The notes under the pieces are model-generated. The model was not told where the DNA came from, searched no databases, and saw only the letters and a program-made list of their open reading frames with translations. Below, in pieces: positions 1 to 27,381 of a stretch of DNA of 28,059 nucleotides. Source of the stretch: a virus; IMG/VR virus record IMGVR_UViG_3300045988_141296, positions 1 through 28,059 of that record; one strand, written 5' to 3'. Position numbers and translations under genes: made by a program. Every line of letters begins with the position of its first letter. The first letter of the stretch is position 1.

Positions 1-96
1 GACTCTGTAATGTGGCATAATCCTGGAAGTTCAGAAGTATCTGAATTATATGAACAGTATTGTGATGTAACCTTAAAAATTCATAATGTAAGATAA
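1..96 (+). CDS. 3' end of an upstream hypothetical protein (partial)
   Basis: Frame 1 is open from the window edge to TAA 94-96 (DSVMWHNPGSSEVSELYEQYCDVTLKIHNVR*). The stop overlaps the next ATG (TAATG). Confidence 0.35.
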   Translation, partial: DSVMWHNPGSSEVSELYEQYCDVTLKIHNVR

Positions 97-533
97 TGAA
101 AACAGATATAAGAAGTTTAGTCTTTATAAAGAATCTATTTAAAGATAAATATAATATAGAAATAGAATGATGTAAAGACGATTATTCCAGATATGATGGA
201 ACATTTACTTGAAATAATATAGACTATATAATTGAAGTTAAAAGGAGAAGATTTAAATCCGATAAATATCCAACTACAATTATAAATAGGGATAAGTTTG
301 ATATACTTAGTAAATGTAACTCTATATTAGTCATTATATTTGATGATGGAGTTTATATTTATAAAGATGTAAAAAGAGCTTTTATTAAAGATTCAATGAA
401 ATATGGAAGAAGTACAACTGATTTTGGAGGAGAATATAAATACTCTTTAAAAACAGAGTTATCTTTAAAGAAAGCAATTAAATTAGAAATAGACACAACT
501 TTTAGTAATTATATAAGAAATGACGACATATAA
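96..533 (+). CDS. Putative PD-(D/E)XK-like nuclease (145 aa), visible only with TGA=Trp
   Basis: ATG 96 to TAA 531-533, with in-frame TGA at 168 and 210 (..IEIE-W-CKDD.., ..GTFT-W-NNID..). YDGTF...DYIIEVKRRR resembles the D...E-x-K core of PD-(D/E)XK nucleases. Absent from the standard-code ORF track. Confidence 0.5.
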
Positions 534-1011
534 GGCAATACCTGGATATGAAAACTATTTAATAGGAACTGACGGTTCGGTCTGGAGTACTAGAACCTCA
601 GTTCCGAAAAATATCAAACCTCAACTCCAAAATAGTGGATATTATTATGTTACTTTATATAATCAGTTTGGGCAAAAGAAATATCTAATACATAGACTAG
701 TGGCAGAAGTTTTCATAGGTAAAAGTGACTTATGTATTAACCATAAGGATGAAAATAAGCTAAATAATAACTTAGATAATTTAGAGTACTGTACTTATGA
801 ATATAACAATAATTATGGCAGTCATAATATTAAAGTAGGAATTTCTCATAAGAAAGCAATTAGACAGCTATCATTAGATGGAAGTTTGATTAAGAGATGA
901 GATTCCGCAATAGATGCTGAACGGGGACTTAATATACAATCCAGAAACATTGTAAAAGTTCTTAAAGGTCAGCGAAAAACAGCTGGAGGGTTTATTTGGG
1001 AATATGAATAA
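520..1011 (+). CDS. HNH homing endonuclease (NUMOD4 / HNH_3-like), 163 aa
   Basis: Track ORF 520-900 continues through TGA 898 to TAA 1009-1011 (..LIKR-W-DSAIDAERGL..RKTAGGFIWEYE*). Motifs: IPGYENYLIGTDGSVWS and HRLVAEVFIG..INHKDENKLNNNLDNLEYCT..YNNNYG. Confidence 0.85.
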
Positions 1012-1312
1012 CAATGAAATAATAGAGAAATACTATCCGTTTATTATGGAGTTAAAAGAAAAATTTGGTGCAGATGACGATTGCACACAAATGGTCTGCA
1101 TTGCACTTCTGGAAACATCTAATTCCAAGCTTCAGTCATTAGATAGTAAGAATGAGCTGAAGTATTGGATTACAAGAGTATTTAAGAATAATTGGTTTTC
1201 TAAGAATAGTAGATACTATTACCAATATAAAAAGTACTATGAAATATTTAAAGAGCCATTAGAACAACAAACGGATAATTTAGAGGATTGGTTAAATGAA
1301 GCAGAAGATTAA
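1004..1312 (+). CDS. Sigma-70/ECF-like sigma factor, region-2 half (102 aa)
   Basis: DDDCTQMVCIALLET...ELKYWITRVFKNNWFSKNSRY matches the sigma region 2 pattern (acidic D-x-x-Q, then W-h-x-R-h-x-x-N-x-x-x-x-x-x-R). Ends TAA 1310-1312. No region 4 in this ORF. Trp is encoded only by TGG. Confidence 0.55.
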   Translation: MNNNEIIEKYYPFIMELKEKFGADDDCTQMVCIALLETSNSKLQSLDSKNELKYWITRVFKNNWFSKNSRYYYQYKKYYEIFKEPLEQQTDNLEDWLNEAED

Positions 1313-1550
1313 TATTGATGATTTATTAATTGAGTATAACTTTGAAATAGATACCTTTACAGAGATGGATGATAGATTACTTGCAATTTATCCTAAATGA
1401 GAGGCATTAAATAGAGCAGATAAGACTATAATTATCTTATATGCTGAATATCGAAGTTATAGAGAAGTTGGGAAGATTCTGGGAATTAGTCATACTACCA
1501 TAGCAAGGTGTATAAGTAATATTAGAAATAAAATATGTGGAAGGATATAG
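1296..1550 (+). CDS. Sigma factor region-4-like HTH protein (84 aa)
   Basis: ATG 1296 (17-nt overlap with the previous ORF, +1 frame) to TAG 1548-1550, with TGA 1398 read as Trp (..IYPK-W-EALNR..). ADKTIIILYAEYRSYREVGKILGISHTTIARCISNIRNKI is a typical sigma region 4.2 helix-turn-helix. Confidence 0.6.
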
Positions 1551-2020
1551 CTAATTATGAAGGTCTTTATAAAGTAAATAATATCGGAGAAGTTTATAGT
1601 ATAAGGACAAATAAATTTATTAAACCTACTATTAGAAATAACTACTTAGCAGTAGGACTATGAAAAAATGGAAAAGTTAAAATGAAGTCTATACATAGAT
1701 TAGTAGCTGAAACATTTATACCAAATATATATAATTTACCAGAAGTAAACCATATTGACGAAAATAAGTTAAACAATAGAGTTGAAAATCTAGAATGATG
1801 TACTAGGAAATATAATACAAATTATGGAACTAGAAATAAAAAGATTTCTTCTTACCTTTCAAAACCTGTAGCTCAATATGATCTTAACGGAACTCTAGTT
1901 AAAAAGTATAATTCTATTAAAGAAGCTGCGGAAGCTTTAGGTAAGTGTGATTATTCAATTCGAGCTTGTTTATATGGCAAATATAAAACAGGTTATAATT
2001 ATGTATGAAGATTATGTTAG
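1535..2020 (+). CDS. HNH homing endonuclease (NUMOD4 / HNH_3-like), 161 aa
   Basis: ATG 1535 to TAG 2018-2020, with in-frame TGA at 1661, 1796 and 2006. Motifs: WKDIANYEGLYKVNNIGEVYS and HRLVAETFIPN..VNHIDENKLNNRVENLE-W-CTRKYNTNYG. TGA 1796 sits at the conserved Trp of the NLEW motif. Not in the standard-code track. Confidence 0.85.
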
Positions 2021-2343
2021 AATTATTTATAATAGCAGTAATAATAGTCTTTATAATTGATTTATCTGGGGCTTTGGATAGTTTTAAACACAGTATTTGA
2101 AAAAGACTATTTAAAGGTATACCTTATAAAGAAGATTGAAGACTAAAACCTTTAGATTGCAGTTTATGTATGACTTGGTGAATTGGATTAATATATATTC
2201 TTATTACAAGTCAATTTTCAATTTTAATGGTTGGATATATTGCACTATTAGCATTTATGACTCCAATTATTAAAGATATTATGATATTATTAAAAGATGC
2301 ATCTACTAAGCTGATAGATGTTATATACAAACTTATTAATTAA
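2005..2343 (+). CDS. Small membrane protein (112 aa, about 3 TM), DUF1360-like C-x-x-C/W motif
   Basis: ATG 2005 to TAA 2341-2343, with TGA at 2098, 2137 and 2179. Hydrophobic stretches LELFIIAVIIVFIIDL, WWIGLIYILI and MVGYIALLAFM. PLDCSLCMTW-W-IGL, where the second Trp is TGA. Confidence 0.55.
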
Positions 2344-2768: not shown

Positions 2769-3129
2769 ATATCTTTATGCTGCAAGGTTATTTAACAAAG
2801 GATGGTCAAGAAATAAAGTAAGTGAAGAACTCCAAAGTAAATATAATGTAAGCCAATCAACAGCTGCAAGATATATTGGAGAAGCTTATAAGATAATTGC
2901 TGAAAAGAATGATAACCTTATAAAAAACCTTAGACATATACAATTATCAAGATTGGAATCATTACTGGATACTGCTATTAGTAAAGGAGATATTAGAGCT
3001 GCAAATGAGATTATTAAGACTATAAATAGTATGTTTGGATTAAATCAACCTGAGACTATTGTAGCTATTCAGAATAATGAAGTCCAGTTTAAATTTGGAG
3101 ATCCAATTAACAATGACAAAAATATATAA
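2677..3129 (+). CDS. Putative small terminase subunit / HTH DNA-binding protein
   Basis: Lies directly upstream of TerL and overlaps it. N-terminal KKTGRPKK basic motif and HTH-like NVSQSTAARYIGEAYKII. Its frame is closed by TAA 2668-2670, so ATG 2677 is the first possible start. Confidence 0.45.
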   Translation: MKVKNQELPKKTGRPKKAEVEKEQIDEVKTKYLYAARLFNKGWSRNKVSEELQSKYNVSQSTAARYIGEAYKIIAEKNDNLIKNLRHIQLSRLESLLDTAISKGDIRAANEIIKTINSMFGLNQPETIVAIQNNEVQFKFGDPINNDKNI

Positions 3130-4360
3130 AGGATATAGTCCATTTATCTATCAATTAAAGGTACATACTGCTTTAGAGCACTCTTATAGGTCTGGAAAAA
3201 TATTTACTGTAAAAGCAAAGAGACAATGTGGTAAATCCTTTATGGCAGAAAATGAACTATTACGATTTTCAATTAACTATCCTGGAAGTATTAGCTGTAT
3301 TGTTGAACCAACTCTTACTAACTCCAGAAAGATATTTAAAGAGTTAGTAAAGGCATTAGATGGCACAGATATTATTAAGAAAAAGAATGAATCTTTGCTT
3401 GAGATTGAATTTACTAATGGGAGTGAAATACTATTTAAATCTGCTGAGCAAAAAGATTCATTACGAGGATTTACAGTTAGTGGAATATTAGTAATTGACG
3501 AAGCTGCTTATATATCAGATGAAGTATACGAAATTTTAACACCTATCGCTGATGTATGAAATGCTCCAATACTTATAATTAGTACTCCAAGGTTTAGAGA
3601 AGGATTCTTTTATGAATGCTTTAAAAAGGGCTTTGATGGTAATTTTAGTAAATATTATCAATCCTTTGATTGAGCATTAGAAGATACTTCTATGCTGTTA
3701 AGTGAGGATAAACTTGAAATGTATCGCCTTACAACCTCCAAAAATAAATTTAGAACTGAATATCTTGGGGAGTTTGCAGATGATGATGGTTGTCTCTTTA
3801 ATAATATAGCTAACTGCATAATTGATAAAAAACCTGAATATCATAATCTTTATATTGGAGTTGACTGGGCTACTGGTTCTGGTAAAGACTATACTTGTAT
3901 TACAGCTTTAAATGAAAATGGGCAGATGGTCTTTATAAAGTATTTTAACGACAAAACTCCAACAGAACAAGTTGATTTACTGACAAATATATTTACTGAG
4001 TATCAAGGATTTATAAAGATAGTTCAAGTCGAACAAAACTCAATAGGTTCAGTGTTTTATGATATTCTTGTAAAAAGGAATCCTAAATTACGGATAGTTA
4101 AGTTTTTAACTACTAATAAGTCTAAAGCAGCTATTGTAAATAAGCTACAAGCTGCATTAGAAAACGAAAAGATTGGTATTTTAAAGGATGATAAACTATT
4201 AAATGAATTAAGACTATATGAAGCCAGTTATAATCCAAAGACTGGAAATGTATCATATAATGCTCCATCTGGCTTTAATGATGATACTTGTATATCTTTA
4301 ATGTTAGCTTATGATGCTTTAAATACAAATAAAGGAACTTATAATATTGCAATTAAATAA
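3113..4360 (+). CDS. terL: Terminase large subunit (415 aa)
   Basis: Track ORFs 3077-3559 and 3692-4360 are in one frame, joined through TGA 3557 and TGA 3671 (..PIADV-W-NAPILIISTP.., ..QSFD-W-ALED..). Walker A KAKRQCGKSF, Walker B ILVIDEAAY, C-terminal nuclease-like GVDWATGSGKDYT...FNDDTCISL. Start chosen at ATG 3113. Confidence 0.9.
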
Positions 4361-5162
4361 TGAATATAGCAACTAAATGGGAAGACGTAAGTCTTAAACA
4401 ATATGAAGCTCTAATGGAGTTTATAAACAGTAATGCAAAGATGACTGATTTAGATAGAAGTATTGAGATATGTGCATTACTTTCAGATGATCCAGATAAA
4501 ACAAGAGATGCTCTTTTGAGTATGGGATTAGATGAATTAGCTACAGAACTTAGTAAAGTTCAATTTATAATCAATAAATACAAAGCTAAGGCTCCAGAAA
4601 CTGAATATACTATTGCTGGAGATAAATATACTGTACAATTAAATATTAGGCAGATGACTGCTGCTCAATATATAGATTTTCAGAACTTTTATAAAGACTA
4701 TCAAAAGAATTTTAAATATATCTTTTTATGCTTCTTAATTCCAAAAGGTAAGAAATATAATGAAGGCTATGATTTAATTGAACTGGCAGATAAGTTATAT
4801 GATAAAATTCCAATTACTGTCATAAATGACATTATGGTTTTTTTTTGCAATCTATTAGCCGCATTAACGGTCAGTACCCTAATCTCTTCAATAAGGGAGA
4901 TGAAGAAGATGCTGAAGAAGGAGAAAGATCCAGTGAAGAAGTATCAATTAAGGAAGATGATCGTTCAGTCTCGGAAAACAGTGAGTTTGGTGCAAAATGG
5001 AACTGGGTTTGTTGAATAGACAGAGTTAGTGAAGTTACAAGATTAAATTGGCATCAAGTCTATGATATGTATATTCAAGAGTTTCTTAATATTATATGTT
5101 ATCTAATAGATAAAGGAAATGAAGAAAAAAGACAAATAGAAGAGTGAAAGAGGAGACACTAA
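4360..5162 (+). CDS. Hypothetical protein with two C-terminal reading options; long form about 267 aa by a -1 shift in a T9 run, join(4360..4845,4845..5162)
   Basis: Frame A (track ORF 4360-5019) ends at TAG 5017. The -1 frame is open 4806-5162 with no start codon before about 5063. It encodes ..FFLQSISRINGQYPNLF..SEFGAKWNWVC-W-IDRVSEVTRLNWHQVYDMYIQEFLNIICYLIDKGNEE..E-W-KRRH*, with TGA=Trp at 5013 and 5145. The T9 run at 4838-4846 is a U_UUU_UUU-type slippery site. Confidence 0.55.
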
Positions 5163-5280: not shown

Positions 5281-5760
5281 ATGACAAGTCAAGATTTAAA
5301 ATTCCCTAATCTTGAAGGAGTACTAAGACAATATGGAAGTCAATTGATTTCAATATATAGACAGAAGTTATTACAGAATAATGCTGATGATACAGGTACA
5401 TTAGGTAATACTTTAAACTACATTGTTGAGGATCAAGATGGAATTTATGAAGTCAGCTTACAAATTCAAGATTACTGAAAGTATTTGGAAGAAGGTAGAT
5501 CTCCAGGTAAATTTCCACCTATTAGTGAAATAAAGAATTGGATAAGAACTAAACCTGTATTACCAAGACCTTATGGAGGTAAACTTCCATCTACAGATCA
5601 ACTTGCATACTTAGTTGCAAGAAAGATTCATTTACAAGGAACACAAGGAAAGCGTATATTAGAAGAATCTTTAGATGAGCTTTCGGCTGTTGCATTGTTA
5701 GATGATGCAATTACAAAAGATTTAGAAACGCAAGTTAATAATGTATTTAAAGACTTTTAA
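5281..5760 (+). CDS. Virion morphogenesis protein, possibly HK97 gp10-like tail-completion type (159 aa)
   Basis: Track ORFs 5281-5478 and 5485-5760 share one frame, joined through TGA 5476 (..LQIQDY-W-KYLEEGRSPGKFPP..KNWIRTKP..). The Y-W-x-Y-x-E-x-G pattern is typical of this morphogenesis family. The family assignment is weak. Confidence 0.55.
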
Positions 5761-5762
5761 AA

Positions 5763-7967
5763 ATGACATTTATACCAAGTAAATTAGGAATACCAAGAAG
5801 TACAGGAACATATCCTGTTAAATGGGAAAATCCAGGATGGGGTCTTACAGGAGTATATGATTATTGGCTATGAGGAGATGACTATTCAGAAGAGGGTCCA
5901 TTAGATGTTACTATTTCTAATGCAAGTACAAGTGGTTGTACTATTAACTTTACAAATCCCTCAACTATTACAACAGACTCTTCTACAATATTTAGATTTT
6001 ATCCAAAAGGACTGACTACTGCTCAATTAGAAGATACTATGCCAGTTTATCTTCATAGTCAAGCTCCTGGATTCTATCCTGCTAATAGTAGTATAACAGT
6101 ACCCAATACTGGAGGTACTTATACTGTTGAATATATATTAAGTAGAGCAGATATTATTAAATGAACTTGTGATGTAGTAAATGCTACTGCTTTAGTAAGT
6201 GTTGAGGTATTAGAATGAGATTCCTGCTCTATTAAGTTTAAGATTACAGTAAATGCTAATACTCAATGGAATACTAATCTTACTGGAACTATTCAATTAG
6301 GAGCTTATTATGATACTAATAAGTTTATTTCTTATAGTTATGGCTTTAAAATTGAAAAAAGCAATACTCCAGAAGATTTAAAGTTAGTAGTAACTCCTTC
6401 ATCTGGAACTTATGGCGCTGGTCCAGGTGTTACTGATAGATTTATGTGCACTCTAACAAGTACTGAGGAAGAGATAACAGAGTTATCTGTAACTTGTCCA
6501 GGATCTTCAAATATTATGGTTGATAAAGTTAATAAATACTTTGTTATTACTTTTCCTGATAATGCTACAACTAGTATTAAAAACTATGCTGCATTAGTTA
6601 CTGCAATAACCTCTGGTGGATATACATTAAATGCTACAGTTCCAATTACTAAGTTAGCTACTTCTTTATCTTTAAAGTCCAGTGTTAGTATTGGATATAC
6701 AGCAGGAAGATATAAGATAGACGGTACAGGTTCTGATAATTTAGATGATGTAGTATTTGCAATTCCAGCAGATGCTCAGACTTGGTTAAGTAAAATGGAG
6801 TTAGTAATAGAAAGAGGAACTCCAGGAGGTATGAATATTGTAAGTATTAATTTTGATGCTACAGAAAATACAGGTAATGCTTCAAGAAAAGCAACAGTTG
6901 GAGTTACAGTAGTAAAAAATGGTTCTAGTGTTATAAATACTTCATTTAATATTGTACAAGAGGTTAAAGCAGATATATCTCCAATATGGAAAGATTATAT
7001 ATGAGAAGAGGAAACTTTAAATGATTTTATAGAATATCATCTTGATTATGCAGGAGATACTATTTATGCTGGTAAAGCTTATAAATATCCTGATGCTACA
7101 GGAGTACAATTTTTACTTAATGATGTATCTGAAGACTTTTTAGATAACGGCATTATATTTCCATCTTTTGGAAAGACAGAAATTATACCTAACTATTTAA
7201 AAACCTTTACATTAATAACTTCAAGCGGTAGTGAAAAGCCTGTAACATTCTTTAATGATTGGTCTTATAAAGATACAGATTTAACTAAGCCTTATTTCTT
7301 AAGTGATCCTATTGACACTTTAGTTGATTCAAGACAGTATGTATTATGTAGTTGGATATTCCCAACTGGTGAAGGTGTGCTTAATAGACGTTATACTACA
7401 CCTGAAGGAGTAGCAACTACTGTAGATATTACATTAAGACAAGGAATTAATGGTTATACTTATGCAGAACCTTTAGGTAATTTACTTTTGGAATGCAAGA
7501 GTAAATATGAAATAGGATTTGTTGAATCTGGCTCTTTTACTACAACTATTAATTATCAGATTGATACTACTAATAAGAATTACGTATTATATTATACTAA
7601 TGCTTATGGAGGATGGGATAGTTTATTAGTACAAGGTAATGTTAAACAAACGGATCAAATTGAATCTCAGACTTATGTAAGAAAGGTATTAAATACCACT
7701 TCTCAGTTTAGTAAAAATAAGTATTTAAACACTATAGTTCCAGAATGGACTTTATATACTAATTATCTTACAGATACTCAAGCATCAAAGATGCACCATC
7801 TATTAGAATCTACTATGGTATATTTACATAATCTGGAGGATAATAAGATTATTCCTGTAATAATTACTAATAATAGTTGTGAGTATAAGACATATAGTAA
7901 TCAGGGTAAAAATATGTTTTATTATACTATAGAAGTACAAAGTTCTCAAGATAAATATAGAAAATAA
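5763..7967 (+). CDS. Large tail/baseplate structural protein with Ig/BACON-like repeats (734 aa), Dit-like position
   Basis: ATG 5763 to TAA 7965-7967, in the same frame as track ORFs 6444-7004 and 7377-7967. In-frame TGA at 5871, 6162, 6216 and 7002. BACON-like strings: VPNTGGTYTVEYILSRADIIK-W-TCDVV and NTGNASRKATVGVTVVKNG. Confidence 0.7.
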
Positions 7968-7968
7968 A

Positions 7969-10900
7969 ATGAGAAAGAATATAAAACTATTTATTGCAAA
8001 TAAAGAGGTTGACTGTAGTGAGGGAATTAGTCTTCCTATAACTTATACAGTTGAGGATTTCCAAAACCCCACTATAGTCAAGAACTCGTTTAGTAAGACG
8101 ATTTCTATACCTGGCACAAAGAATAATAATAAGATATTTGGAGAAATCTATAAATTAGATAGATTACAACATATTGAAGACGGTCAGTTTAGCGGTATTA
8201 ATTTCAATCCTTCAAAACGAGTTGATTTTGGAATCTATGATAATGGAGATTTAATAGAATCTGGTTATATGCAATTAAATACCATACAAATTAAACAGAA
8301 GGTCATTACATATAACATTACTTTATATGGAGGCTTAGGAGATTTCTTCTATGGGCTTAAATATAAAGAAGATGGATCATTAAGAACTCTTGCTGATTTA
8401 CAATACTTTATTACAGATGAGGAAGGTAATGTTTTACCTGCTGATACTGAAATGGATTTTTATATTAATAAAGATTTTGTAAATAAATCATTTAATAATT
8501 ATTGGAATAGCGACTTTACTACATTAGATAGCTTTGTTGGATTTATTCCTGCATATAATGGTTTATATGAGAATTTTGACAATGAAACTTGTTTAATAAA
8601 TACAGCAGGAGACACTCTATTTCCCAAATCTGCAAGCGATGGAGGAACAACATATACTCCATATAATGGTTATGCTTTAGCACAATTAAATAGAGCTTAT
8701 ACAGAATGGGAAATAAGAGACTTACGCAGTTATATGCAAAGACCAGTGTTAAAACTTTCTAAGCTTATAGAAACTATTTGTAGAAAAGAGAATTCTGGAT
8801 ATGATGTAATATTTGATGATTACTTCTTTAATTATGCAAATCCTTATTGGAGCAAATCATTTGTAGCTCTTCCCTTGCTTGGAAGTAGTGAAGATGAAGA
8901 ATCAGATTCTATTAAAGAGAACGCAAAGCTTATTAAATATGGAGCAGATAACTGGTGGGTAGGATTAAAACCTGGAGGAACAACAACTTCATATAATTGA
9001 GGATATACTTCTGTTGATGGCAGCGAGGTAATAGTTCCTGGAGAAGGAAATATTATTGATTTATCTGCAACACCTGCTAATACTTTAGTAAATATCTCAA
9101 TGGATTTTCAGGTGTTCTTCAATGCTAATGCTAGTTCCTCTGCAAATAATCTTTATTTATCCTATGTACGCAATGGAAAAATGGGAAATACTGAGTATCA
9201 TAATGATCCGTATAGAACATCTTTAACTGTTCAGATACTTGTATATAATGCCGATGATGAATCTGTTCCATCTAAACCTATAGCATATTCTCCATTGTAT
9301 AATTTTACAAATAAGATTAATACTCAAGTTCAAGCTGGACCATCTACTTGGTTTAATTATTATCCTCTTACTGATGCTCCTGTTGAGGCTATTTATGGCC
9401 ATTTTGTTAAAGATAGTGGGCAGAGGTACTATTTTAAAAGTGATACGGGAAGCAATACCTTTAGATTTGTGGTTAAAGATATGCCAAAAGTAAATAAGAT
9501 AAGGGTGTCAATTCAATTTGCCAGAAGAACAGAAAGTCTCTATAATCAAGATGCTTTATGGATTTCAGATAATATGAACCCAAATAATGTTACTGCATCA
9601 AGAGTAGCAGGATGATCTGAATTTTTATATGATTCAGATCAATATACATTAATTGCAAGTTGGCCATCGGCTGTAACATCTGATGCTCTTATTACTAAGC
9701 AGAAGCTTTTAAAGACAGAATCTACACCTGCAGATTATTTACTTAGCTATGCTAAAATGTTTGGATTATATTTTATTAAAGATATAGATTCCAAAACTAT
9801 TAGAATATTTACCAGAAACAACTTCTTTAAAAATAAGATAACAGATTGGTCTAAACGAATTGATTATTCAAAAGATTTTTCAGTTAATCCATTATTATTT
9901 GATAAGAAGTGATATACTATGAAACAAGAAGCTCCTGAGACGTATTATGCAAAGAAATATAATAAACAGTATGATATAACTTATGGGCAACAGAGATTAG
10001 ATACAGGATATAATTTTAATAGTGATAATACAGATTTATACTCAGATAACTTATATGAAAATGTAATATCTGCAAGAGATGTAGATAAGTATTATAGAAA
10101 CTATTTTAATAGTTCAAGTTCGCCCGTTCCCTGCTTCCTAAATGATAATATTACTTATCAATTATTCCATTCTACATCTACTGAAAGAAAAACAAACGAT
10201 CAGGATCTTTATGGAGTAAATTTCATTGATTCATCTAAGACTACAGAGTGGTGGGATGTTCCTGGTAATGATATATTTGCAAAGACTTGTTTCTATTCAT
10301 TAGATAATGATGAGCAAAGTTTAGAAGAAATTAAATCGACATTACTATTTTATAACGGCAATGTAGAGATGAAAGATATTGATGGCAATCCTATTACGTA
10401 TTGGATTACTGATGATGTTACAGAAATGTCTGTATTAAATGATTCTGAACCTTGCTATTTATATACTACTAGAGAAACTAATGAAGCTGGTGCTAAGATT
10501 GCAATTAAAAGAACTTCTTTACCACAATTCATAAGATATAATATATCAAGTAATTATGTAATATCTAGTTGGGATTTTGGATTACCAAGAGAAATTTATA
10601 TAGATAAAATTGCATATCCAGAACAAAGTGTTATTTATTCTCAATTCTGGAAAGAGTTCTATACTGATCAGTTTGATGTTAATACTAAGAAAGTTACTTG
10701 TTTTGTAAAATTAAATGATTTACAAGTAAACTTTGATATGTTAAGACAATTTTATTATTTTGAAGATAGTTATTGGGTATTAAATAAAATAGATGCTTAT
10801 GATGTTAATTCTGATGCAACTACCAGATGTGAATTTATAAGAGTTCAAGACATCAATAATTATATAGGAGGAGTATCTACTTTAGGTAAATACATAGAAG

Positions 10901-15659: not shown

Positions 15660-15681
15660 TTATTAAATTATTTATAAAATT

Positions 15682-16587: not shown

Positions 16588-16625
16588 TTTCAATAGAGTT
16601 TAACTTTAAATAAGATTGAAATTAT

Positions 16626-17240: not shown

Positions 17241-19583
17241 ATGGCAAACGAAACTGAAAAGACAATTCTTCCTTATCTTAATGTCCTTGAAGTCGAAACA
17301 ATAGATAAGTCAAATGTGACTAAAGTTATTGTTATTGACAAGGATGATGAAGTTAAGGTTATGGATGGTTCTCAGTTAGCTACTAATAGCTATTTTGATC
17401 TTCAGGATAAACCTGAAATCAATGGCATTGAGTTAAATGGTAATATGACTTCAGAAGAGTTGGGATTAGCGTCATCTGAAGATATTGTTACTATTAATTC
17501 TGAGTTAGAGCAAATAAAGAGTACTATTCCAAGTGCTGAAAATATTGATAATCAGATAACTGAACGATTAGCTGATTATCCAACTAAAGAAGAGGTTACA
17601 ACTGAAATTTCAGATGCAGTTGCCAATAAAGCCGATAAATCTGAGATACCAACAAAAACTTCACAATTAACTAATGATAGTGGATTTATTAGCAGCTTAG
17701 ATGGATATGCTACTGAAAAATGAGTTGAAGATAATTATCTTACAAAAGAAGCTGCTGAAAGTGCATTAAATTCTAAACAGAATAAATTAAACCAAGGTGA
17801 CGGTATAGTAATTGAAGAGAATACTATTTCTGCAGATTATAATACTATTCATAACAAACCATCTTTAAATGGAACTGAATTATCTGGAGCAGCTTCAATT
17901 GTACCTGCCATTAATATTCAATCAGTCCCATCTAAAGTTACTTTAGCTCCTGTATTTGGTAATCAAACTGGAGAAGCAGTTGAACTTCCAATATATAATA
18001 CAGAGACTAATCAAGCTGGTATTGTTAATGGTCCTCTATATGCACAATTAGCAGATAAATATACTAAAGCTGAAATTGATGCTTTAAATACAGCTATTAA
18101 TAAAGAGATAGCTTCAAAACAGGGAACTCTTACAGCAGGAAAGAATATATCTATTATAGATAATGTAATCTCTGCTTTTGAGAATCATTTCTTACTTAAT
18201 TTAGATGAGAATGATCCTGTAAGACAGAAACATATCTATGACTTTATTAGAACTAATCTGGACTTCTATTTATTCTGCCAGATTACATATAAAGGTGATA
18301 TTATAGTTATTCCTGTTGCAACTATTGAGCATCCCGAAACTATTGATTTATATGGCTATTATTTCCAAGATAATGGTGTATTAGTAGTTATTAATGCAAT
18401 CTTAGTAAATAATGGTAATATGACTGTTAAAGTTACTGAGGTTGATCTTACTAATAAAGGATATACTAAAGATGAAGTAGATGAGAAACTTGCAGCTAAG
18501 CAAGGAGTATTTACTCCACAAGCTCCATTAGCTTTTAATGAAGATAAATCCCAATTATCTGTAGATTTATCTGGATACCAACCAGTTGGTGATTATGCTT
18601 TAAAGAGTGATATTCCAACTAAAGTTAGTGAGCTTACTAATGATTCTAACTTTGTAACTGAAGCAGAGGTTTCTGGAGATTTAGCAGGTAAAGCAGATAA
18701 GACTTATGTTGATGAGCAGCTTGCTACTAAACAGCCTGTAGGAGATTATGCAACAAAAACAGAACTTGCTGGTAAAGCTGATTCTTCTGTGGTAGAATCT
18801 TTATCTACTCAAGTAGCAACTAATACTTCAGATATATCAATTATTAAAACAAAACAAGAAGAAGATGGAGATAAGATTGATTCTCTTGATAAAAAGATGG
18901 CTACTAAGCAAGATTTACTTGTAAGTGGAACTAATATCAAAACAATCAATAGTCAGTCTTTACTTGGAGAAGGTAATATAGAAATTGAAAGTGGTTCTAA
19001 TATTCCATTTCTATTTATAAATTCCACTACTCATCTTTCTGGAGATTTCGCTGCTGTTAAGAATGCTATAGCTAATGAAAGACCATTTGAGCTTTATTAT
19101 GTAAATATTCTAGGTTATGGTGGTATAGCAGCTCCAGACGTATGTTTTGCTTCAGGAGAAAATATTCAAGCTACTTTCCATTTTGAAAGTACTACAGCTA
19201 ATCATACTGTAGTTCAAACTACTATTACTCCAACTGGAGTATCAGCAGATACTAGTTATCATAGTTATCAGGAGCAATTAGTTTCTGGGACTAATATAAA
19301 GACTATTAATGGTGAAAGTATTTTAGGAGAAGGTAATCTTGAAATATCTGGTAGTGGAGGGACTACTGACTATACTCAGTTAACAAATAAACCTCAGATT
19401 AATTCTGTTGAACTTAGTGGTAATAAGAGTCTTGAGGATTTAGGTATTCAGCCTGCTGGAAACTATATTGAAGCTGGAACTGGAACCCAACCTCAAATAA
19501 ATACTATTACTGTTCTAACTCAATCAGAATATGATGGTTTATCAACTAAAGATCCTAATACACAATATTTAATTGTAGAATAA
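17241..19583 (+). CDS. Tail fibre protein (780 aa) with internal repeats
   Basis: Track ORFs 17241-17723 and 18420-19583 share one frame, and the stretch between them is open. Joined through TGA 17721 (..GYATEK-W-VEDNYL..). Repeated fibre motifs: YATKxEL/AGKADKS, LTNDSGF/LTNDSNF, NKPxINxxELxG, and two copies of LVSGTNIKTINxxS(L/I)LGEGN(I/L)EI. Confidence 0.8.
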
Positions 19584-20667: not shown

Positions 20668-21282
20668 ATGATTATACTTAAGAATACTAAAAATACACAA
20701 ACTTTCTATGTAAGTAAGAAATGTGGTATTGAATCTGGACAACTTCCAGTTGGTTCTTATACAAAGATTGAAGCAGATGCGAGATTTCAACCTAAAGGTA
20801 ATTACATTTCCGAAGATAAGGCTGTTGAAATAATTGATGAGCAAATTAATTCTCAGTTGGATGTTATACTTGAACCTAAGTTAGAGCCAATTAAGAATGA
20901 TATTACTGAATTAGAAACATCTAAGATGGAAGTATTTCAAGCTAATCAACCTCTATCTTTACATAGAAATGGAGAAGGTTTGCAACTATCTGTAGATTTA
21001 AGTAATTATGCAACTAAAGCAGAAATTCCTGATACTAGTGATTTTGCTACTAAAGAAGAGCTTACAGCTGTAGAGAATAAGATTCCTGATGTATCTGGAT
21101 TAGCTACTAAAGATCAAGTTGCACTTAAAGCAGATAAAAGTGAGTTATCAAACTATGTAACTACAGATGCATATAATACAAAGATGACAGAGTTAGATGG
21201 AGAAATCTCAGCAATTCAAGCTCAGATTGGTAATATTTCAACTACTCTTGATACAATTAATGGTGAAATTCCAAATGAATAG
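20668..21282 (+). CDS. Short tail-fibre-like protein (204 aa)
   Basis: Shares fibre motifs with 17241-19583: (Q)LSVDLS(G/N)[22 protein letters not shown]. Coiled-coil-like C-terminus. Ends TAG 21280-21282. Confidence 0.6.
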
Positions 21283-21796
21283 AGTATTAACAAATTATCC
21301 TAACTATAGTGTATCTTCTACAGGAGATGTATATAGTAACCCATTGACTTTTAAAGATTCTATTGGAAGAACCAGAAAACAAATACATAAAAAGCTAAAA
21401 CAGCATATAGATAAATATGGCTATAATTATGTAATTCTAGTATCTGGCTTAGATAAACCTAAAGCTATTAAAGTTCACAGACTAGTAGCAGAAGCATTTA
21501 TTCCAAATCCTGACAATCTACCATATGTTAACCATATAAATGAAAATAAGACAGATAATAGGGTAGAAAATTTAGAATGATGTGATGCAAAGTATAATAA
21601 TACATATGGAACTAGAATAAATAGATGTATTGATAAAATTAGTAAACCTGTAGGGCTATTTATTAATGATTTACTAGTTAAAACATATAAAAATGCAATT
21701 GAAACATCAATAGATGGGTATACTCATAGTAGAGTTATAGATTGTCTTAAAGGAAGAACAGACACTTATAAAGGGGTAAAATTTAAATATATCTAA
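21275..21796 (+). CDS. HNH homing endonuclease (NUMOD4 / HNH_3-like), 173 aa
   Basis: Start chosen at ATG 21275; the track start at 21197 overlaps the fibre gene. Continues through TGA 21578 to TAA 21794-21796. [45 protein letters not shown], a paralogue of 1535-2020. Confidence 0.85.
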
Positions 21797-21797: not shown

Positions 21798-22787
21798 ATG
21801 GCAAATACAATTTCTGATAAATTAACGTATCTTGAAGGTACTAAGAGTGCCATTAAAGATGCTATTGTAGCTAAAGGTGTTGCTGTATCAGATTCAGATA
21901 CCTTTAGAAGCTATGCAGATAAGATAGGACAGATTTCTGGAGGTGGTGGAGGAAAGATTAATTTAAATGATTATGGATTAACATTTGCAAATTCTAAAAT
22001 GGATAAAGATCATTATGATAACGTTGAATATGAAATTCCACAAGATTGTAGTTATTGATTTCATATGGCTTCATTTCAAGATCCTATTGATATATCTGAT
22101 CATATTAATCCAGATATATTATATGCTGCGGAAAGAACATTTCAAAATGCTAGCAATATACATATTAATGAGATAAAACTGATGGCCGAACGTTCATATA
22201 CATTTTCTGGTTTTGCAGGCAGTATTGATACTCTAGAATTTATTAATCCTCAATCCCCTAGTTGAGGATATTGTACGCGCACATTTTATTTATCCTCATC
22301 TTTTCCAAAAAATATAACAATAACAAATAAGTATGAAACTAGTGGATGTTCATTAGAATATTTTTTTAATCAAGTAACTACTGATTCTGCTGTTCCTATT
22401 AGTGTCCCTGAAATTGAAGTTATAAATGGGCAAGTAACTTTTACTCAGTATTTTAGCTCATATTCATCTAGTATCACATCTGTAGGTAAAATAAAATTAA
22501 CAAATTGTTCTTTACACCAAGATCTTAATAAATGAGCACTTTGTGGTACAGCTAGTAGTGTTGTAACTTATTTTGGGGGTGTTGAAGGAGCTGATAAAAG
22601 TATGAATTTAGCAAATTTTAGAGCACTAAATAGTCAATCAGTAACTGATATTATTACAAATGTTAGTGATTTAACTGGAAAGGATACCAAAACTTTAACT
22701 TTTTATACTAACGTTTATAATGCACTTACTGAAGAACAGAAATCATTAGCTACATCTAAAAACTGAACTTTAGCAAGTTCAAACTAA
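21798..22787 (+). CDS. Fibre-associated protein, paralogue of the 19585 LRR protein (329 aa)
   Basis: Track ORFs 21798-22058 and 22065-22265 plus untracked sequence share one frame to TAA 22785-22787, with TGA at 22056, 22263, 22533 and 22764. N-terminal fibre-like LTYLEGTKSAIKDAIVAKGV. C-terminal ..VYNALTEEQKSLATSKN-W-TL.. aligns with ..VYNSLTEEQKSQITSKGWSV.. of 19585-20427. Confidence 0.7.
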
Positions 22788-22940: not shown

Positions 22941-23333
22941 ATGAATTATACTTTATTAATGCAAAATACAACTACTAAAGAAGTTTATGTATATAACTTA
23001 GAAAATCAGAATTATGCTGAAAATATCTACTATAAGTTTGATATTACATTATCTGATGATATGCCTGATGGTGAATATCAGTATATTCTGTTTAGTAACC
23101 CAAATAAACTTGAAGTAATTGTAGATGTAAATAATCCTATGCAGTCAGAGCTATATGGTAATCCAGTTATTCTGGTAACTTATGAAAATACTCTTACTAC
23201 AGGAACACAGATATTAGTTGCTGGTAAACCTATACCTGTATTGAGTTCAGGACTAATAAGAGTTGGAGATTATCAGAATAATAAATACCAATACGATAAA
23301 CAAAACAAATATACGGCTTATGAGCGAAAATAA
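22941..23333 (+). CDS. Hypothetical protein (130 aa)
   Basis: Intact ORF, first gene after the terminator/promoter region. No recognisable motif and no TGA. Confidence 0.5.
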   Translation: MNYTLLMQNTTTKEVYVYNLENQNYAENIYYKFDITLSDDMPDGEYQYILFSNPNKLEVIVDVNNPMQSELYGNPVILVTYENTLTTGTQILVAGKPIPVLSSGLIRVGDYQNNKYQYDKQNKYTAYERK

Positions 23334-24411
23334 AACAAAAGTACAATTAAGTGCAATTGATCCTGTTGTAGTGTCAAATTTAGTACTTCCTGTAGAATCG
23401 AGAAAAAGGGGTTCTGATTGGATTTCTTGGGGTGAAGATAATCGCTATCCATTATATCTATGGGATTTATACTTAAATGTAGCTACTCTTCAATCTATCA
23501 TTAATGGGACTGCTGACTTTATTGTTGGTAATGATGTTATATGTAATGCACCAGGATTTGAAGTAACTGTAAATAAGAAAGGTGAAACTATTATGGATAT
23601 TATGCGTAAAGTATCTAAAGATAAGATGATTTTTGGAGGATATGCTTTACAAATAATTAGAGATATGTTAGGTAGAGTTTCAGAGATCTATCATCTTGAC
23701 TTTATGAAGATTCGTTCTGATGAAAAGAATGAAGTATTCTATTATGCCGATGATTGGTCTGCTTGGTCTATTAAAGCTATCAAATATCCAAAATTTAATT
23801 ATTCAGATGATAATCCTACAAGTGTTGTTTATAATAAGGGCTATATAACAAGAAAAGTATATCCAGTCCCTGTTTATGGTGCAGCTATCCTATCTTGCGA
23901 AACTGAGAAGAATATTAATGAGTTTCATCTAAATTCTCTTCATAACGGATTTATGGGTAATATTATCATTAACTTTAATAATGGACAGCCTACAGACGAA
24001 GTTAAAGAAGAGATTGAGATGAATATTAATGAGAAATTCTCAGGATTTCAAAATGCTGGCAGAGTTCTTATTTCATATAATGATGATGAAACAAATAAGA
24101 CTACTATTGAGCGTTTAGACTCTGATGATTTTGATGAGAAATATAGTGCTTTATCTGAAAGGACAAGAGAACAGATATTCTGCGCATTTAGAGCTAATAG
24201 TGTACTTTTTGGCCTTAACTACTCAAGTGGATTCAACGAACAAGAATTTAATGAAGCTTTTAAACTTTATAATCGTACAGTAGTTAGACCAATTCAGGTC
24301 GAAATAGTAGATACATTTGATAAGATATTTGGAATGAAAGGTTCAATAACTATAACTCCTTTTAGCTTAACTCCAAATGGACAAGAAGATAGCAAACAAA
24401 ATGTTGAATAA
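23320..24411 (+). CDS. Portal protein (363 aa)
   Basis: Start chosen at ATG 23320 (MSENKTKVQ..) within track ORF 23263-24411. ..DWISWGEDNRYPLYLWDLYLNVATLQSIINGTADFIVGN..FGGYALQII.. fits the N-terminal pattern of phage portal proteins. Five Trp, all TGG. Confidence 0.7.
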   Translation: MSENKTKVQLSAIDPVVVSNLVLPVESRKRGSDWISWGEDNRYPLYLWDLYLNVATLQSIINGTADFIVGNDVICNAPGFEVTVNKKGETIMDIMRKVSKDKMIFGGYALQIIRDMLGRVSEIYHLDFMKIRSDEKNEVFYYADDWSAWSIKAIKYPKFNYSDDNPTSVVYNKGYITRKVYPVPVYGAAILSCETEKNINEFHLNSLHNGFMGNIIINFNNGQPTDEVKEEIEMNINEKFSGFQNAGRVLISYNDDETNKTTIERLDSDDFDEKYSALSERTREQIFCAFRANSVLFGLNYSSGFNEQEFNEAFKLYNRTVVRPIQVEIVDTFDKIFGMKGSITITPFSLTPNGQEDSKQNVE

Positions 24412-25009
24412 TTATACTGTTTATTGCCATATAAATAAGTATAACAATAAGCTATATTTTGGCATTACTGGACAAAGTGTGCAAGCTAGGTGAAAAAATG
24501 GATATGGATACTCTACTCAAGCTTACTTTTATAAAGCGATACAAAAATATAGCTGAGATGGATTTGAACATATCATAATTAAAGATAATTTACCAGAAGC
24601 TTGTGCTAAGACATTAGAAAGGATATTGATACATAAATATAAAACAAATACTCCTGAAAATGGTTACAATATAACATCAGGAGGAGAAGGTACATACGGG
24701 TATTCTTTTTCTAATGAGAGTAGAGCAAAAATGTCAAATTCTAAAAAAGGTAAAACACCCTGGAATAAAGGAAAGAAAGGAATCTATACTTTGGAAACAC
24801 TTATTAAAATTGGAAATGCTTCCAAAGGACGAATTACTAGAGTTAAGCCTATATTAAGATTTGATATGAATGGGAATTTTATTGCAAGATATAATTCAAT
24901 GAAAGAAGCTGTTAAATCAGTTAATGGAGAACGTTCTGGATTATATTTAGCTTTAAAAGAAAATAGACCTTATAAAAACAATAAATTTATTTATGATGGA
25001 ACAACTTAA
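24401..25009 (+). CDS. GIY-YIG homing endonuclease (202 aa)
   Basis: ATG 24401 (11-nt overlap with portal), in frame with track ORF 24626-25009 through TGA 24491 and 24554. YTVYCHINKYNNKLYFGITGQSVQAR-W-KNGYGY..KAIQKYS-W-DGFEHIII..ERILIHKY..GYNITSGGEG, then a NUMOD3-like SxESRAKMS. Confidence 0.8.
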
Positions 25010-25682: not shown

Positions 25683-25684
25683 TT

Positions 25685-26110
25685 ATGACCTACTATGAGA
25701 TAATTAGCAATTTAAAAGCTTGTGCATTAGAAGAGCCAAACATCAATTTTGTAGGAAGTAAAGATATTTATGAGTTAAATAGCTTACCAACTATTGAGTA
25801 TAATGTGTTCTATATAACACCTAATACTTTTAGTGTAGATGAAGATACTATTACTTACTCTTTAAACCTATACTTCGTATCAAGATGGGATGAGACTGAT
25901 AACAACCAATTGGAGGAACAGTCAGCAGGTATGCTTGCACTGCAAAATATAATTAATCGTTTTAATAACCTATATCCAGAAGTTGAAATAGCTTATCCTT
26001 TAATTTATACTCCATTCTATCAAAAGTTCAAAGATATTACCTGCGGAGTGTTTGTTAGAGCTGATTTCCAAGTTGACAACACACTGGGTTTATGTCAAGA
26101 CAGTATGTAA
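25685..26110 (+). CDS. Hypothetical virion/connector protein (141 aa)
   Basis: Intact ORF packed tightly after the adaptor-like gene. No recognisable motif. Confidence 0.4.
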   Translation: MTYYEIISNLKACALEEPNINFVGSKDIYELNSLPTIEYNVFYITPNTFSVDEDTITYSLNLYFVSRWDETDNNQLEEQSAGMLALQNIINRFNNLYPEVEIAYPLIYTPFYQKFKDITCGVFVRADFQVDNTLGLCQDSM

Positions 26111-26766
26111 TGGAAAATAAATTAAATTGGTTTGGTAAAGTATTAGAATGGGTTGATAAATATGGATTACTAAAGATATTTAAAGCAGGGATTGGATTAA
26201 TATTTATATCCTATGTAATGGTTATTACACTTAATCCCTCTATTGTTTATAATAAGGTTGTAACCTATATTGAACAAACTCACAATTCTAAAACTATTGC
26301 AAGAAATGAAGCAACTTTAAAGATTAAATATAAGCTTAAAGAATTGCTTCAAAGTACCAATGCTGATAGAGCTTGGGTTATTGAATATCATAATGGAACT
26401 ACTGGATTAGGGGGACTTCCATTTACTTATGGAGTAATGAATGCAGAGGAAGTAAAACCAGGAATAAGACCTGTAAGTAGCCATTATAAAGATTTCCTGT
26501 TATCTGACTATACTTCAATTATAGAGTTTTCTAAGAATGATGGATGGTTTGGTAATATAGATAGTTTAGAAGCAGATGATCCAAGATTATATTATGCATT
26601 TAAATCCAACAGAGTGAATGAAATAGCAGTATTTTATTTAAAGACTGAGGATAAAGATATTGGCATTTTAGGTTTGTCATTCTGTGATACACCTATGCCT
26701 TATGATACTTGAGTACATCTAAGAAGAGCTGGAATACAGATAAGTATAATTTTAAATAAAATATAA
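26110..26766 (+). CDS. N-terminally membrane-anchored protein of unknown function next to the lysis genes (218 aa)
   Basis: ATG 26110 (TAATG overlap; alternative ATG at 26092). Track ORF ending at 26712 continues through TGA 26710 to TAA 26764-26766. TM segment GLLKIFKAGIGLIFISYVMVITL, then a roughly 150-aa soluble domain. Confidence 0.55.
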
Positions 26767-26767
26767 T

Positions 26768-26929
26768 ATGAAATATTGGTTAAAATATGTAATTGCAGTA
26801 GTTATTATTCTGCTGATATGTTTACTAATCAAAGTAATTCCTTTTTGGATTACTGTAGTATTACTTGTAATAGGTGTGGCTTCACATCTATTTTATAGAT
26901 ATGTTATGATTAAAGATATACTTAAATAA
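26768..26929 (+). CDS. Holin candidate (53 aa, two TM segments)
   Basis: MKYWLKYVIAVVIILLICLLIKVIPFWITVVLLVIGVASHLFYRYVMIKDILK*. Below the track size cut-off. Its stop overlaps the endolysin ATG (TAATG). Confidence 0.55.
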   Translation: MKYWLKYVIAVVIILLICLLIKVIPFWITVVLLVIGVASHLFYRYVMIKDILK

Positions 26930-27381
26930 TGAAGTATTTCACACTCGAAGAATTAACAAGATCTGATACTGCTTCAATTAAGCATATAGATAACACTCCA
27001 GATGAGAGTATAACAGAGCACCTGATAGAGTTGGTCGAGAAGCTTTTAGACCCAATAAGAGAGAGATGGGCAAAGTATTGTGATGACAATCAGCTTGGCA
27101 ATGCAGGCATCAGGATTTCCTCTGGTTTTAGGAATAAGGAGCTTAATAAAGCAGTGGGAGGATCTTCAACTTCTGCTCATTTAACAGGGTATGCAGCAGA
27201 TATATCTCCAATTAATGGTAATATGAAAGTATTCCAAAGTTGGATTGCTGAAGCTATCGAAGAATTTGATTTCGACCAGTTGATATATGAAAGGCCTAGG
27301 AATGGTATAGCAAGTTGAATACACTTGGGATTAAAGAATAAAGACGGAATGCAAAGACGACAGAAATTTACTATTATATAA
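26929..27381 (+). CDS. Endolysin, peptidase M15 (VanY / D-Ala-D-Ala carboxypeptidase-like) family (150 aa)
   Basis: Track ORF 26929-27318 continues through TGA 27316 to TAA 27379-27381. SGFRNKELNKAVGGSSTSAHLTGYAADI carries the H-x6-D zinc motif. ..NGIAS-W-IHLGLK supplies the family's conserved W-x-H with the third zinc-ligand His. Confidence 0.8.

Follow-up and report, generated by a model that had tools for sequence, protein, structure and literature searches.

Reading of TGA as tryptophan (Trp; translation table 4, code 4) has already been published for phages, and table-4 phages make up 0.08% of the viral operational taxonomic units in UHGV. In most of those described, no suppressor tRNA could be detected (65% in Borges et al., 10.1101/2021.08.26.457843; 85% in PMC11210395). 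Here, a 28,059-bp stretch of viral DNA with 30.6% G+C (GC) content (IMG/VR record IMGVR_UViG_3300045988_141296, the full stretch being referred to as the window) was analysed, which represents about 91% of the ~30.7-kb genome of a tailed phage from the human gut, and TGA was shown to be a sense codon for Trp in it. The lineage adds a case without a major capsid protein (MCP) homologue among deposited phage genomes. Its distinctive features are a small complete genome without tRNA, the occurrence of TGA in every transcription unit, its avoidance in a manner linked to expression level, Bacteroidota-type signals and the existence of unrecoded close relatives.

The code-4 gut phages of Borges et al. 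(Agate, Jade and others) resemble this phage in their in-frame TGA codons aligned to Trp, low GC content, loss of TGA as a stop and recoded structural and lysis genes, and most of them likewise have no detectable suppressor tRNA. Besides, the presence of an unrecoded close relative (L031, see below) fits the path of TGA depletion followed by capture that was proposed for them. The members studied in depth differ in that they are 127–200 kb, are mostly predicted to infect Firmicutes, often encode tRNA-Sup(UCA), release factor 1 (RF1) or tryptophanyl-tRNA synthetase (TrpRS), and keep their replication genes in the standard code. The phage described here, in contrast, has ~30.7 kb, no tRNA and a predicted Bacteroidota host; TGA is found in all of its transcription units, and avoidance follows expression level (capsid block) as much as timing. 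The likeness described here is one of coding features. The large terminase is abbreviated as TerL in the following.

Opal- and amber-recoded crAss-like phages (Crassvirales; PMC7886860, PMC12386605) share Bacteroidota hosts, the human gut, AT-rich DNA, Bacteroidota-type promoters, a related M15 endolysin and stop-codon reassignment with this phage. They differ by their size (~90–190 kb), podovirus-like type and block-wise dual coding, and many encode suppressor tRNAs; no MCP homology to the window was detectable in deposited phage records, and TerL similarity to any deposited phage was at most 28%. The only crAss-like endolysin examined, that of cr114_1, is TAG-recoded and not TGA-recoded: the M15 endolysin gene (L119 151-546; NC_055897.1) contains three in-frame TAG codons, which exemplifies amber recoding of a lysis gene in a phage of Bacteroidota. 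The small recoded phages and prophages Garnet and Topaz (e.g., the Garnet prophage in Prevotella; Borges et al.) are similar in size (22–34 kb), in the Bacteroidota host in the case of Garnet, and in that recoding extends to nearly all genes, with avoidance of the recoded codon in one key early gene. However, they read TAG as Gln, are temperate and have the integrase as the avoided gene, whereas the present phage reads TGA as Trp and contains no integrase, and no prophage copy of it was found when GTDB species-representative genomes were scanned. Finally, the Mycoplasma phages MAV1 and P1 use TGA for Trp throughout without TGA stops or any need for a suppressor tRNA at a similar GC content. 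In these, TGA is the preferred Trp codon (77 and 95% compared to 32% here), no lysin is annotated and the hosts are wall-less, in contrast to the M15 endolysin and Bacteroidota-type expression signals of the phage described here.

Genes were re-called with TAA and TAG as the only stops, which gave a nearly gapless array with 35 plus-strand genes and reproduced the gene set of an earlier note on this stretch, made from the letters alone. Plus-strand open reading frames (ORFs) of at least 100 amino acids (aa) covered 22,731 nt (81%) under table 11 and 27,477 of the 28,059 nt (98%) under table 4, and the largest ORFs increased from 620, 561 and 502 aa to 1162, 784 and 781 aa. Freeing TAG in place of TGA gave hardly any gain (23,949 nt). 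TerL, the protease, the endolysin and the HNH proteins were of full length once TGA was read through. All 35 TGA positions listed in the earlier note were in frame and located in 19 of the 35 genes; in-frame TGG was counted 76 times, close to its estimate of about 75. As it had also claimed, no gene ended in TGA (0/35), the ends being TAA in 29/35 and TAG in 6/35. The family names it had proposed agreed with Pfam, which showed HNH_3/NUMOD at 520, 1535 and 21197, a helix-turn-helix (HTH)/sigma region-4-like domain at 1296, TerL at 3077, Peptidase_S78_2/XkdF at 13858, GIY-YIG at 14462 and 24377, portal at 23263, Peptidase_M15_3 at 26929 and HNH at 27384. Since the standard code fragments 19 genes, including those for terminase, tail, fibre, protease and endolysin, table 4 is needed for correct annotation.

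The phage was found to belong to a common and diverse group. The MCP (15682-16587) gave more than 596 matches in IMG/VR, the closest of which showed 88–96% aa identity and were located on 26–34-kb contigs. An identical MCP was found on a 28,536-bp ENA human-stool scaffold, from which the window probably derives, and on 29–30-kb Logan contigs, and the TerL clusters hold hundreds of member sequences. Joining of the relatives' loci gave a circular or permuted genome of ~30.7 kb, of which the ~2.6 kb outside the window is a minus-strand early module that encodes a 575-aa superfamily 2 (SF2) helicase-like protein and contains two to four small ORFs as well as a region of divergent promoters. Deposited phage records contained nothing that matched window bases 1-25,000 at the DNA level or the MCP, and TerL matches were at most 28% identical and uninformative on the host. 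The helicase-like protein had no sequence match in PDB and no Pfam or PHROG family above threshold. Dozens of independent contigs, assembled from other samples, have the same in-frame TGA codons, which shows that these are not an assembly artefact.

The amino acid at TGA was determined by projecting every codon of the window onto aligned relatives (more than 60 related contigs). At the TGA sites of the window, codon counts in the relatives were 183 TGA, 79 TGG and about 21 others; at the TGG sites they were 853 TGG, 180 TGA and about 70 others, mostly for Tyr or Phe. TGA was present in at least one genome at 80 of 111 Trp sites. This mutual exchange at the same codons shows that TGA and TGG act as synonyms. 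More distant relatives (MCP 32–46% identical, GC 31–56%) contained no in-frame TGA, and had Trp in the conserved TGA columns: at TGA 14314, 35 of 39 distant homologues had W, and at 1796, 5145, 5476, 21578 and 27316 all had W. At less conserved columns, aromatic residues or His were found (W, or F/Y/H). TGA 27316 falls on the W of S-W-[IV]-H, which is invariant in endolysins from a crAss-like phage and from one phage each of Bacteroides fragilis and Achromobacter. The assignment to Trp made in the earlier note is therefore borne out by the exchange with TGG and by W in standard-code homologues. Its motif arguments were also upheld for the HNH_3 motif (1796, the W of NLRW in I-HmuI, 1U3E; 21578), the W-x-H metal site of the M15 peptidase (27316), the tail of the XkdF-type protease (14314) and the two leucine-rich repeat (LRR) paralogues, in which the homologous Trp is TGG at 20410 and TGA at 22764.

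Two other sense readings were not supported. A Gly pattern as in the code-25 phages of Absconditabacteria/Gracilibacteria was not seen at the TGA columns: GGA occurred five times, all at 24491, compared to TGG 79 times, and Gly was absent from the distant homologues. Selenocysteine does not fit 35 sites in 19 genes that exchange with TGG and not with TGT or TGC, and no selenocysteine insertion sequence (SECIS) family was returned by an Rfam E-value scan of the window and early region. TGA is thus a sense codon for Trp in all transcription units, and UAA and UAG are the only terminators.

The features of the window are given below, with TGA positions and, where counted, TGA:TGG in relatives.

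96..533, plus strand: 145-aa ORF of unassigned function; TGA 168 and 210 are both its Trp codons; relatives 9:8
520..1011, plus strand: HNH_3/NUMOD4 homing-endonuclease-like gene; TGA 898, F/Y in this column in distant homologues
1296..1550, plus strand: HTH/sigma-70 region-4-like regulator; TGA 1398
1535..2020, plus strand: HNH_3/NUMOD1/NUMOD4 endonuclease, I-HmuI-like; TGA 1661, 1796, 2006
2005..2343, plus strand: small membrane protein; TGA 2098, 2137, 2179; relatives 13:5
3077..4360, plus strand: large terminase; TGA 3557, 3671
4845..5162, plus strand: -1-frame extension overlapping 4360-5019; TGA 5013, 5145, the latter W in three distant relatives
5281..5760, plus strand: 159-aa structural-module protein; TGA 5476, W in four distant relatives; close relatives 4:3
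5763..7967, plus strand: 734-aa tail protein; TGA 5871, 6162, 6216, 7002; TGA and TGG exchange at 11/14 Trp sites
7969..11418, plus strand: 1149-aa tail protein; TGA 8998, 9613, 9910; 16/20 Trp sites are TGA in at least one genome
11421..13745, plus strand: 774-aa coiled-coil tape-measure-like protein; TGA 12060; a strong terminator hairpin (13746-13815) lies directly 3′ of it
13858..14451, plus strand: XkdF-type prohead protease (Peptidase_S78_2); TGA 14314; close relatives 7:23
15057..17150, plus strand: scaffold-like protein, MCP (15682-16587) and 174-aa structural protein (16626-17150); no TGA, eight TGG; terminator 17151-17197
17241..19583, plus strand: 780-aa tail fibre (Phage_tail_C); TGA 17721 is the sole Trp codon
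19585..20427, plus strand: 280-aa LRR-like repeat protein; TGA 20155; Trp of the C-terminal TSKGW is TGG at 20410
21197..21796, plus strand: HNH_3/NUMOD4 endonuclease; TGA 21578 in the ENLEW motif, W in distant homologues
21798..22787, plus strand: 329-aa paralogue of 19585-20427; TGA 22056, 22263, 22533 and 22764 are all four Trp codons; relatives 41:1
23263..24411, plus strand: portal protein; five TGG and no TGA in the window
24377..25009, plus strand: GIY-YIG/NUMOD3 homing endonuclease; TGA 24491, 24554; relatives at 24491 have TGA 7, GGA 5 and TTC 1
26092..26766, plus strand: 224-aa protein with an N-terminal transmembrane segment, just 5′ of the lysis genes; TGA 26710; relatives 43:21
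26768-26929, plus strand: 53-aa holin-like gene directly 5′ of the endolysin gene
26929..27381, plus strand: Peptidase_M15_3 endolysin with conserved metal-site motifs; TGA 27316 in S-W-I-H
27723..28059, minus strand: terminator and start of the early module (two small ORFs); the helicase-like gene and divergent promoters lie just beyond the window

In the alignment of the I-HmuI-like protein (1535..2020) with 1U3E, TGA 1661 corresponded to F. TGA 2006 could be taken for a stop, as it overlaps the start of the next gene as ATGA; inspection of paralogous HNH proteins placed it at the conserved W of a C-terminal G-[FY]-x-W-x-Y motif, and it is thus a sense codon. The homologue of the small membrane protein gene 2005..2343 in the standard-code relative L031 contained four TGG and no TGA. 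In TerL, the homologue columns were H24/W4/Y3/K2/F1 at residue 161 and F25/W8/L1 at residue 199; both are compatible with Trp, yet not diagnostic, as neither is a conserved Trp in the wider family.

TGA accounted for 0.32 of the Trp codons, while the A-ending share in the AAA, GAA, CAA, TTA and AGA pairs was 0.65–0.89. In the Mycoplasma phages MAV1 (29% GC) and P1 (26.8% GC) the TGA share was 0.77 and 0.95 and tracked the other pairs. The share of 32%, which is far below both the other purine pairs and the Mycoplasma phages, shows that TGA is selected against in this phage. The argument of the earlier note that Mollicutes favour TGA far more strongly holds on these figures, while what follows for host phylum and code is conditional (see below).

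Avoidance was shown to be gene-specific when distinct haplotypes were counted per gene across the relatives (TGA:TGG). TGA-poor genes were those for the MCP (0:49), the 174-aa protein (1:37), the scaffold (0:10) and the holin-like protein (0:26), and the early helicase-like gene had one TGA against about 111 TGG over 23 relatives with 73–100% identity. TGA-rich genes were 21798-22787 (41:1), 26092-26766 (43:21) and 4845-5162 (35:15), and the first genes of the plus-strand operon were also TGA-rich. In scaffold, MCP, 174-aa protein and helicase, 2 of 13 Trp sites were ever TGA compared to 79 of 103 elsewhere (Fisher p = 2.6e-5, uncorrected for phylogeny). The TGA-poor structural block, from the protease to the 174-aa protein, is bounded by the terminators 13746-13815 and 17151-17197, which fits a short, highly expressed transcript. 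UGA was thereby shown to be costly relative to UGG. A strict model with a standard early and a recoded late phase was rejected: a small early-strand gene 3′ of the helicase gene has TGA at a conserved Trp that is TGG elsewhere (ELDK-W-MLE compared to ELDI-W-MEY). No TGA stop was found in the early module of 16–23 relatives, nor in the sister clade represented by L120.

The earlier note had seen no suppressor tRNA in the window, and ARAGORN and Rfam agreed. ARAGORN gave no tRNA, and so no suppressor with a UCA anticodon, either for the window or for a set of more than 60 loci which jointly cover complete genomes of many relatives; with Rfam at E ≤ 1, the window and early region yielded neither a tRNA-like match nor a credible match to any other RNA family. 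Relaxed ARAGORN runs, with and without introns, gave inconsistent calls inside coding sequence only. One of these, a 'tRNA-SeC(tca)' at the 80% threshold, was rejected, as it lies on the antisense strand of a coding sequence and was not found again in the window. Intergenic structured RNAs were also rejected as decoders, as the longer intergenic regions fold into simple terminator hairpins. The sister-clade contig L121 does carry a tRNA (6154-6241), which was ruled out as a suppressor: it is a class-II tRNA-Ser(GCU) (Rfam tRNA, 51.5 bits) directly 3′ of the second late promoter, absent from the 97–98% identical L120. For interference with release factor 2 (RF2) or for synthetase genes, which the earlier note had suggested looking for, release-factor (including RF1), synthetase (TrpRS) and deaminase domains were sought in 34 window and early-module proteins and none was found. 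As the phage has no suppressor tRNA, UGA is most likely decoded by the machinery of the infected cell.

Comparison of relatives showed that recoding is patchy. The sister clade L120/L121 (TerL 58% identical, 28.5% GC) was recoded to an even greater extent, with TGA 44 : TGG 50 and no TGA stops; it contains the same promoters and a different early module, in which an HTH_36 protein replaces the helicase. L030 and L032 were also recoded. L031 (MCP 67% and TerL 51% identical, 25–28% GC), in contrast, had no in-frame TGA and 38 TGG in the 20 genes counted, despite an AAA/AAG ratio of 352/64; single matches to the promoter consensus were found near its early region. Two apparent TGA stops in L031 were uninformative, as each is backed by TAA or TAG within 0–1 codons. 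Together with L124, L031 represents a syntenic relative (IMGVR_UViG_3300029905_000019, 30,128 bp) that seemingly avoids TGA in either role and whose early module is unrelated to that of the window clade. In L122/L123 (TerL 49% identical, 59% GC), 12 of 26 genes end in TGA as an ordinary stop. Taken together, these relatives agree with the published model in which TGA is depleted at low GC content and then captured. The code of other loci could not be told from a crude ORF-coverage ratio, which was replaced by counts of in-frame TGA in tblastn alignments. Gene-content comparison gave no credible candidate for a recoding factor common to the recoded clades and missing in L031. The two recoded clades have different early modules with no common early gene, and their only shared genes without a tblastn counterpart in L031 were the lysis pair, the small membrane protein and g96, for which L031 ORF 6131-6586 is an apparent distant counterpart.

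Several signals bear on the phylum of the host. The primary-sigma consensus of Bacteroidota consists of TTTG at about -33 and TAnnTTTG at -7 (PMC7366714). In the early-region locus L113, the sigma-ABfr consensus (TTTG-N19-21-TAnnTTTG) was found four times compared to 0.76 expected, and none of 200 shuffles reached four. Two tandem matches are located 5′ of the helicase gene, one faces the plus-strand operon and one lies just after the helicase gene. This arrangement was kept in 18 relatives, with about 70-fold enrichment compared to the rest of their loci, and was also present in the sister clade. Shine-Dalgarno (SD)-like 4-mers preceded only 4 of 32 genes and A was found at -3 in 75%, and few SD sites with A at -3 is the pattern described for Bacteroidetes mRNAs (PMC7366714). 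Portal homologues among deposited phages came only from Nonlabens (Flavobacteriaceae) and Bacteroides phages, together with one unannotated human-faecal contig. The endolysin gave its lowest E-values to B. fragilis phage endolysins, with further matches in Prevotella, crAss-like and other Gram-negative phages; as an M15 enzyme that degrades peptidoglycan it argues against a wall-less Mycoplasmatales host. A GTDB genome scan with the MCP gave two matches only, both distant and on contigs of Bacteroidota metagenome-assembled genomes. From promoters, lack of SD sites, portal and endolysin we infer that the host is most likely a standard-code Bacteroidota. In recent genome-wide screens, the taxa recorded with code 4 were Mycoplasmatales, some Eggerthellaceae and Patescibacteriota and a few endosymbionts, with no Bacteroidota among them (10.64898/2026.05.24.727570; 10.64898/2025.12.01.691617). 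A 148,631-bp record considered as possible host DNA (IMGVR_UViG_3300045988_175865; L003/L084/L109) was shown to be a head-to-tail chain of non-identical ~30-kb phage genomes, i.e., an assembly concatemer and neither a jumbo phage nor a prophage in host DNA.

Taken with the TGA share, these signals strengthen, without proving, the proposal of the earlier note that the phage is recoded in a standard-code host, and we regard it as reasonably probable that this is so and that UGA is decoded by the host's own machinery. The likeliest decoder would be host tRNA-Trp(CCA) reading UGA by near-cognate C:A wobble, possibly as a readthrough-prone variant such as the forms with a 4-bp anticodon stem of some Bacteroidales, and RF2 may be weakened by a phage or host factor. 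If such decoding were slower or leakier than that of UGG, UGA would be kept well below mutational expectation and purged from the genes for scaffold, capsid and 174-aa protein, which form the most expressed block, as well as from the large helicase-like gene of the early module, and could drift freely in low-copy proteins such as tail, fibre, homing endonucleases and the lysis-adjacent protein. Decoding by host tRNA-Trp is made plausible by the literature: a 4-bp anticodon stem was reported for 8.9% of bacterial tRNA-Trp(CCA) genes, 24 Bacteroidales genomes have the 4-bp form alone and fewer UGA stops, and Bacteroides oleiciplenus expresses both forms, the 4-bp variant raising UGA readthrough in Escherichia coli (PMC13092985).

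A number of results weigh against phage recoding in a standard-code host. TGA is present in every transcription unit, including the small early-strand gene at a conserved Trp, and all units begin at host-type promoters; thus, there is no clean division into standard early and recoded late genes, as expected if the phage switched the code. The base following TGA was weakly biased (fewer T and C; p = 0.008 on non-independent data) and the position of TGA within genes showed no bias, which gives no clear sign of competition with RF2. Genes with four TGA codons require a per-codon efficiency above ordinary near-cognate leakage. No prophage copy, match to clustered regularly interspaced short palindromic repeats (CRISPR) or host-linked contig was obtained, and the lack of a candidate phage factor together with patchy recoding fits a host that natively reads UGA as Trp equally well.

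Such a host, natively of code 4 (no RF2, and tRNA-Trp UCA or an equivalent) and matched by the phage, would be an unrecognized walled lineage, e.g., of gut Bacteroidota or another phylum with similar promoters. It would explain why TGA is sense in all transcription units with none needing a phage tRNA, why TGA is never a stop in ~40 genes of more than 60 genomes, why two recoded clades have no common phage-encoded candidate factor, and why recoding is patchy (L030 and L032 but not L031), as host switching would give; new code-4 lineages are also still emerging (Eggerthellaceae, Patescibacteriota). However, the TGA share of 0.32 contrasts with 0.77–0.95 in phages of true code-4 hosts at the same GC content, TGA is strongly purged from the capsid block and helicase gene, and the peptidoglycan endolysin excludes Mycoplasmatales. 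The signals point to Bacteroidota, which have no code-4 member in a GTDB-scale screen of several hundred thousand genomes, and as the phage is common in human gut data, an abundant unrecognized host of this kind is unlikely. We therefore consider a native code-4 host unlikely.

An undetected decoder or RF2 antagonist of the phage itself, such as a highly non-canonical suppressor RNA or a small protein acting on RF2 (inactivation) or on host tRNA-Trp (editing or modification, e.g., C34-to-U), appears improbable. Published surveys found suppressor tRNAs in only 15–35% of code-4 phages and suspect undetected machinery, and the phage has many small ORFs without family match. The large early gene is nearly free of TGA (1 compared to ~111 TGG), as if needed before recoding, and the trait varies among close relatives (no in-frame TGA in L031). 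Against this, default and relaxed ARAGORN and Rfam gave no credible tRNA-like element in complete genomes, the intergenic RNAs are simple terminators, no early gene is common to the two recoded clades, no deaminase, release-factor or synthetase domain was found in the 34 scanned proteins, and TGA is already present in the genes that open every transcript. Exploitation by the small phage of a third-party suppressor in the same cell, e.g., from a crAss-like phage or prophage with tRNA-Sup(UCA), is very improbable: the gut is indeed rich in opal-recoded crAss-like phages that have suppressor tRNAs and Bacteroidota hosts (PMC7886860, PMC12386605), the endolysin is shared with crAss-like phages and the phage has no detected decoder of its own, yet the case is purely circumstantial and every essential gene would be conditional in a phage that is widespread and diverse.

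A broader proposal, which we put forward tentatively and hold to be somewhat doubtful, is genome-wide reading of UGA as Trp in Bacteroidota without a dedicated tRNA. This would occur either in an unrecognized population of gut Bacteroidota hosts that efficiently read UGA themselves (e.g., by a 4-bp-stem or Hirsh-type tRNA-Trp(CCA), or by loss or weakening of RF2) or by a small unannotated phage product that converts host tRNA-Trp or RF2. If true, either route would be a tRNA-independent stop-codon reassignment in a bacterial system. With ~30.7 kb, no tRNA, a predicted host phylum, unrecoded close relatives and hundreds of natural variants that map where TGA is tolerated and where it is purged, the lineage is a small and tractable case of how recoded phages without a suppressor tRNA get the codon read.

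Further observations concern the early promoter region. In L113 (9434-9647 and 11716-11747, with the same places in L092-L114), two tandem near-identical promoter copies of ~55 nt (TTTGGAAATT...TAnnTTTGTACTATCAA) face the helicase-like gene, and a divergent promoter opposite to them faces the late operon. The helicase leader contains a conserved terminator-like hairpin (GGCAGG-TGAAART-CCTGCC and a T run), for which two relatives have swapped in another hairpin at the same place; it may be an attenuator. Some relatives (L092, L095, L097, L098, L101, L104, L114) carry an extra ORF of ~160 aa at -728 to -242 from the helicase start, the N-terminus of which is T5orf172/GIY-YIG-like by eye and which contains three in-frame TGA.

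Six genes of homing-endonuclease type were found in the ~30-kb genome: three HNH_3/NUMOD (520-1011, 1535-2020, 21197-21796), two GIY-YIG (14462-15064, 24377-25009) and one HNH (27384-27722). The GIY-YIG gene 14462-15064, between protease and scaffold, is missing in many close relatives, which join 14453 directly to 15035, and it is the sole gene with a clear SD-like site. Strong GC-rich hairpins with T runs (13746-13815, 17151-17197, 22838-22865, 5213-5240 and ~27723-27760) separate blocks of the plus-strand operon, and z-scores of -4.7 to -7.0 were obtained for the three regions in which the hairpins were strongest.

A run of nine T is located at ~4836-4846, where the -1-frame ORF 4845-5162 opens inside the 219-aa gene 4360-5019, and both frames of the overlap are kept in the distant relative L031. 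The downstream ORF is probably reached by slippage on the T9 run. The overlap 4836-5162 suggests a programmed -1 frameshift giving a fusion protein, as in the G/GT pairs of tail chaperones, here beside the terminase. In the sister clade, ~440 nt between two host-type promoters (L121 ~5700-6100; L120 ~7230-7640) seem GC-richer than their flanks and contain internal repeats (CTGGCAAGTTT twice), hairpins and only a short ORF, with no Rfam match; this stretch could be a novel non-coding RNA or an origin.

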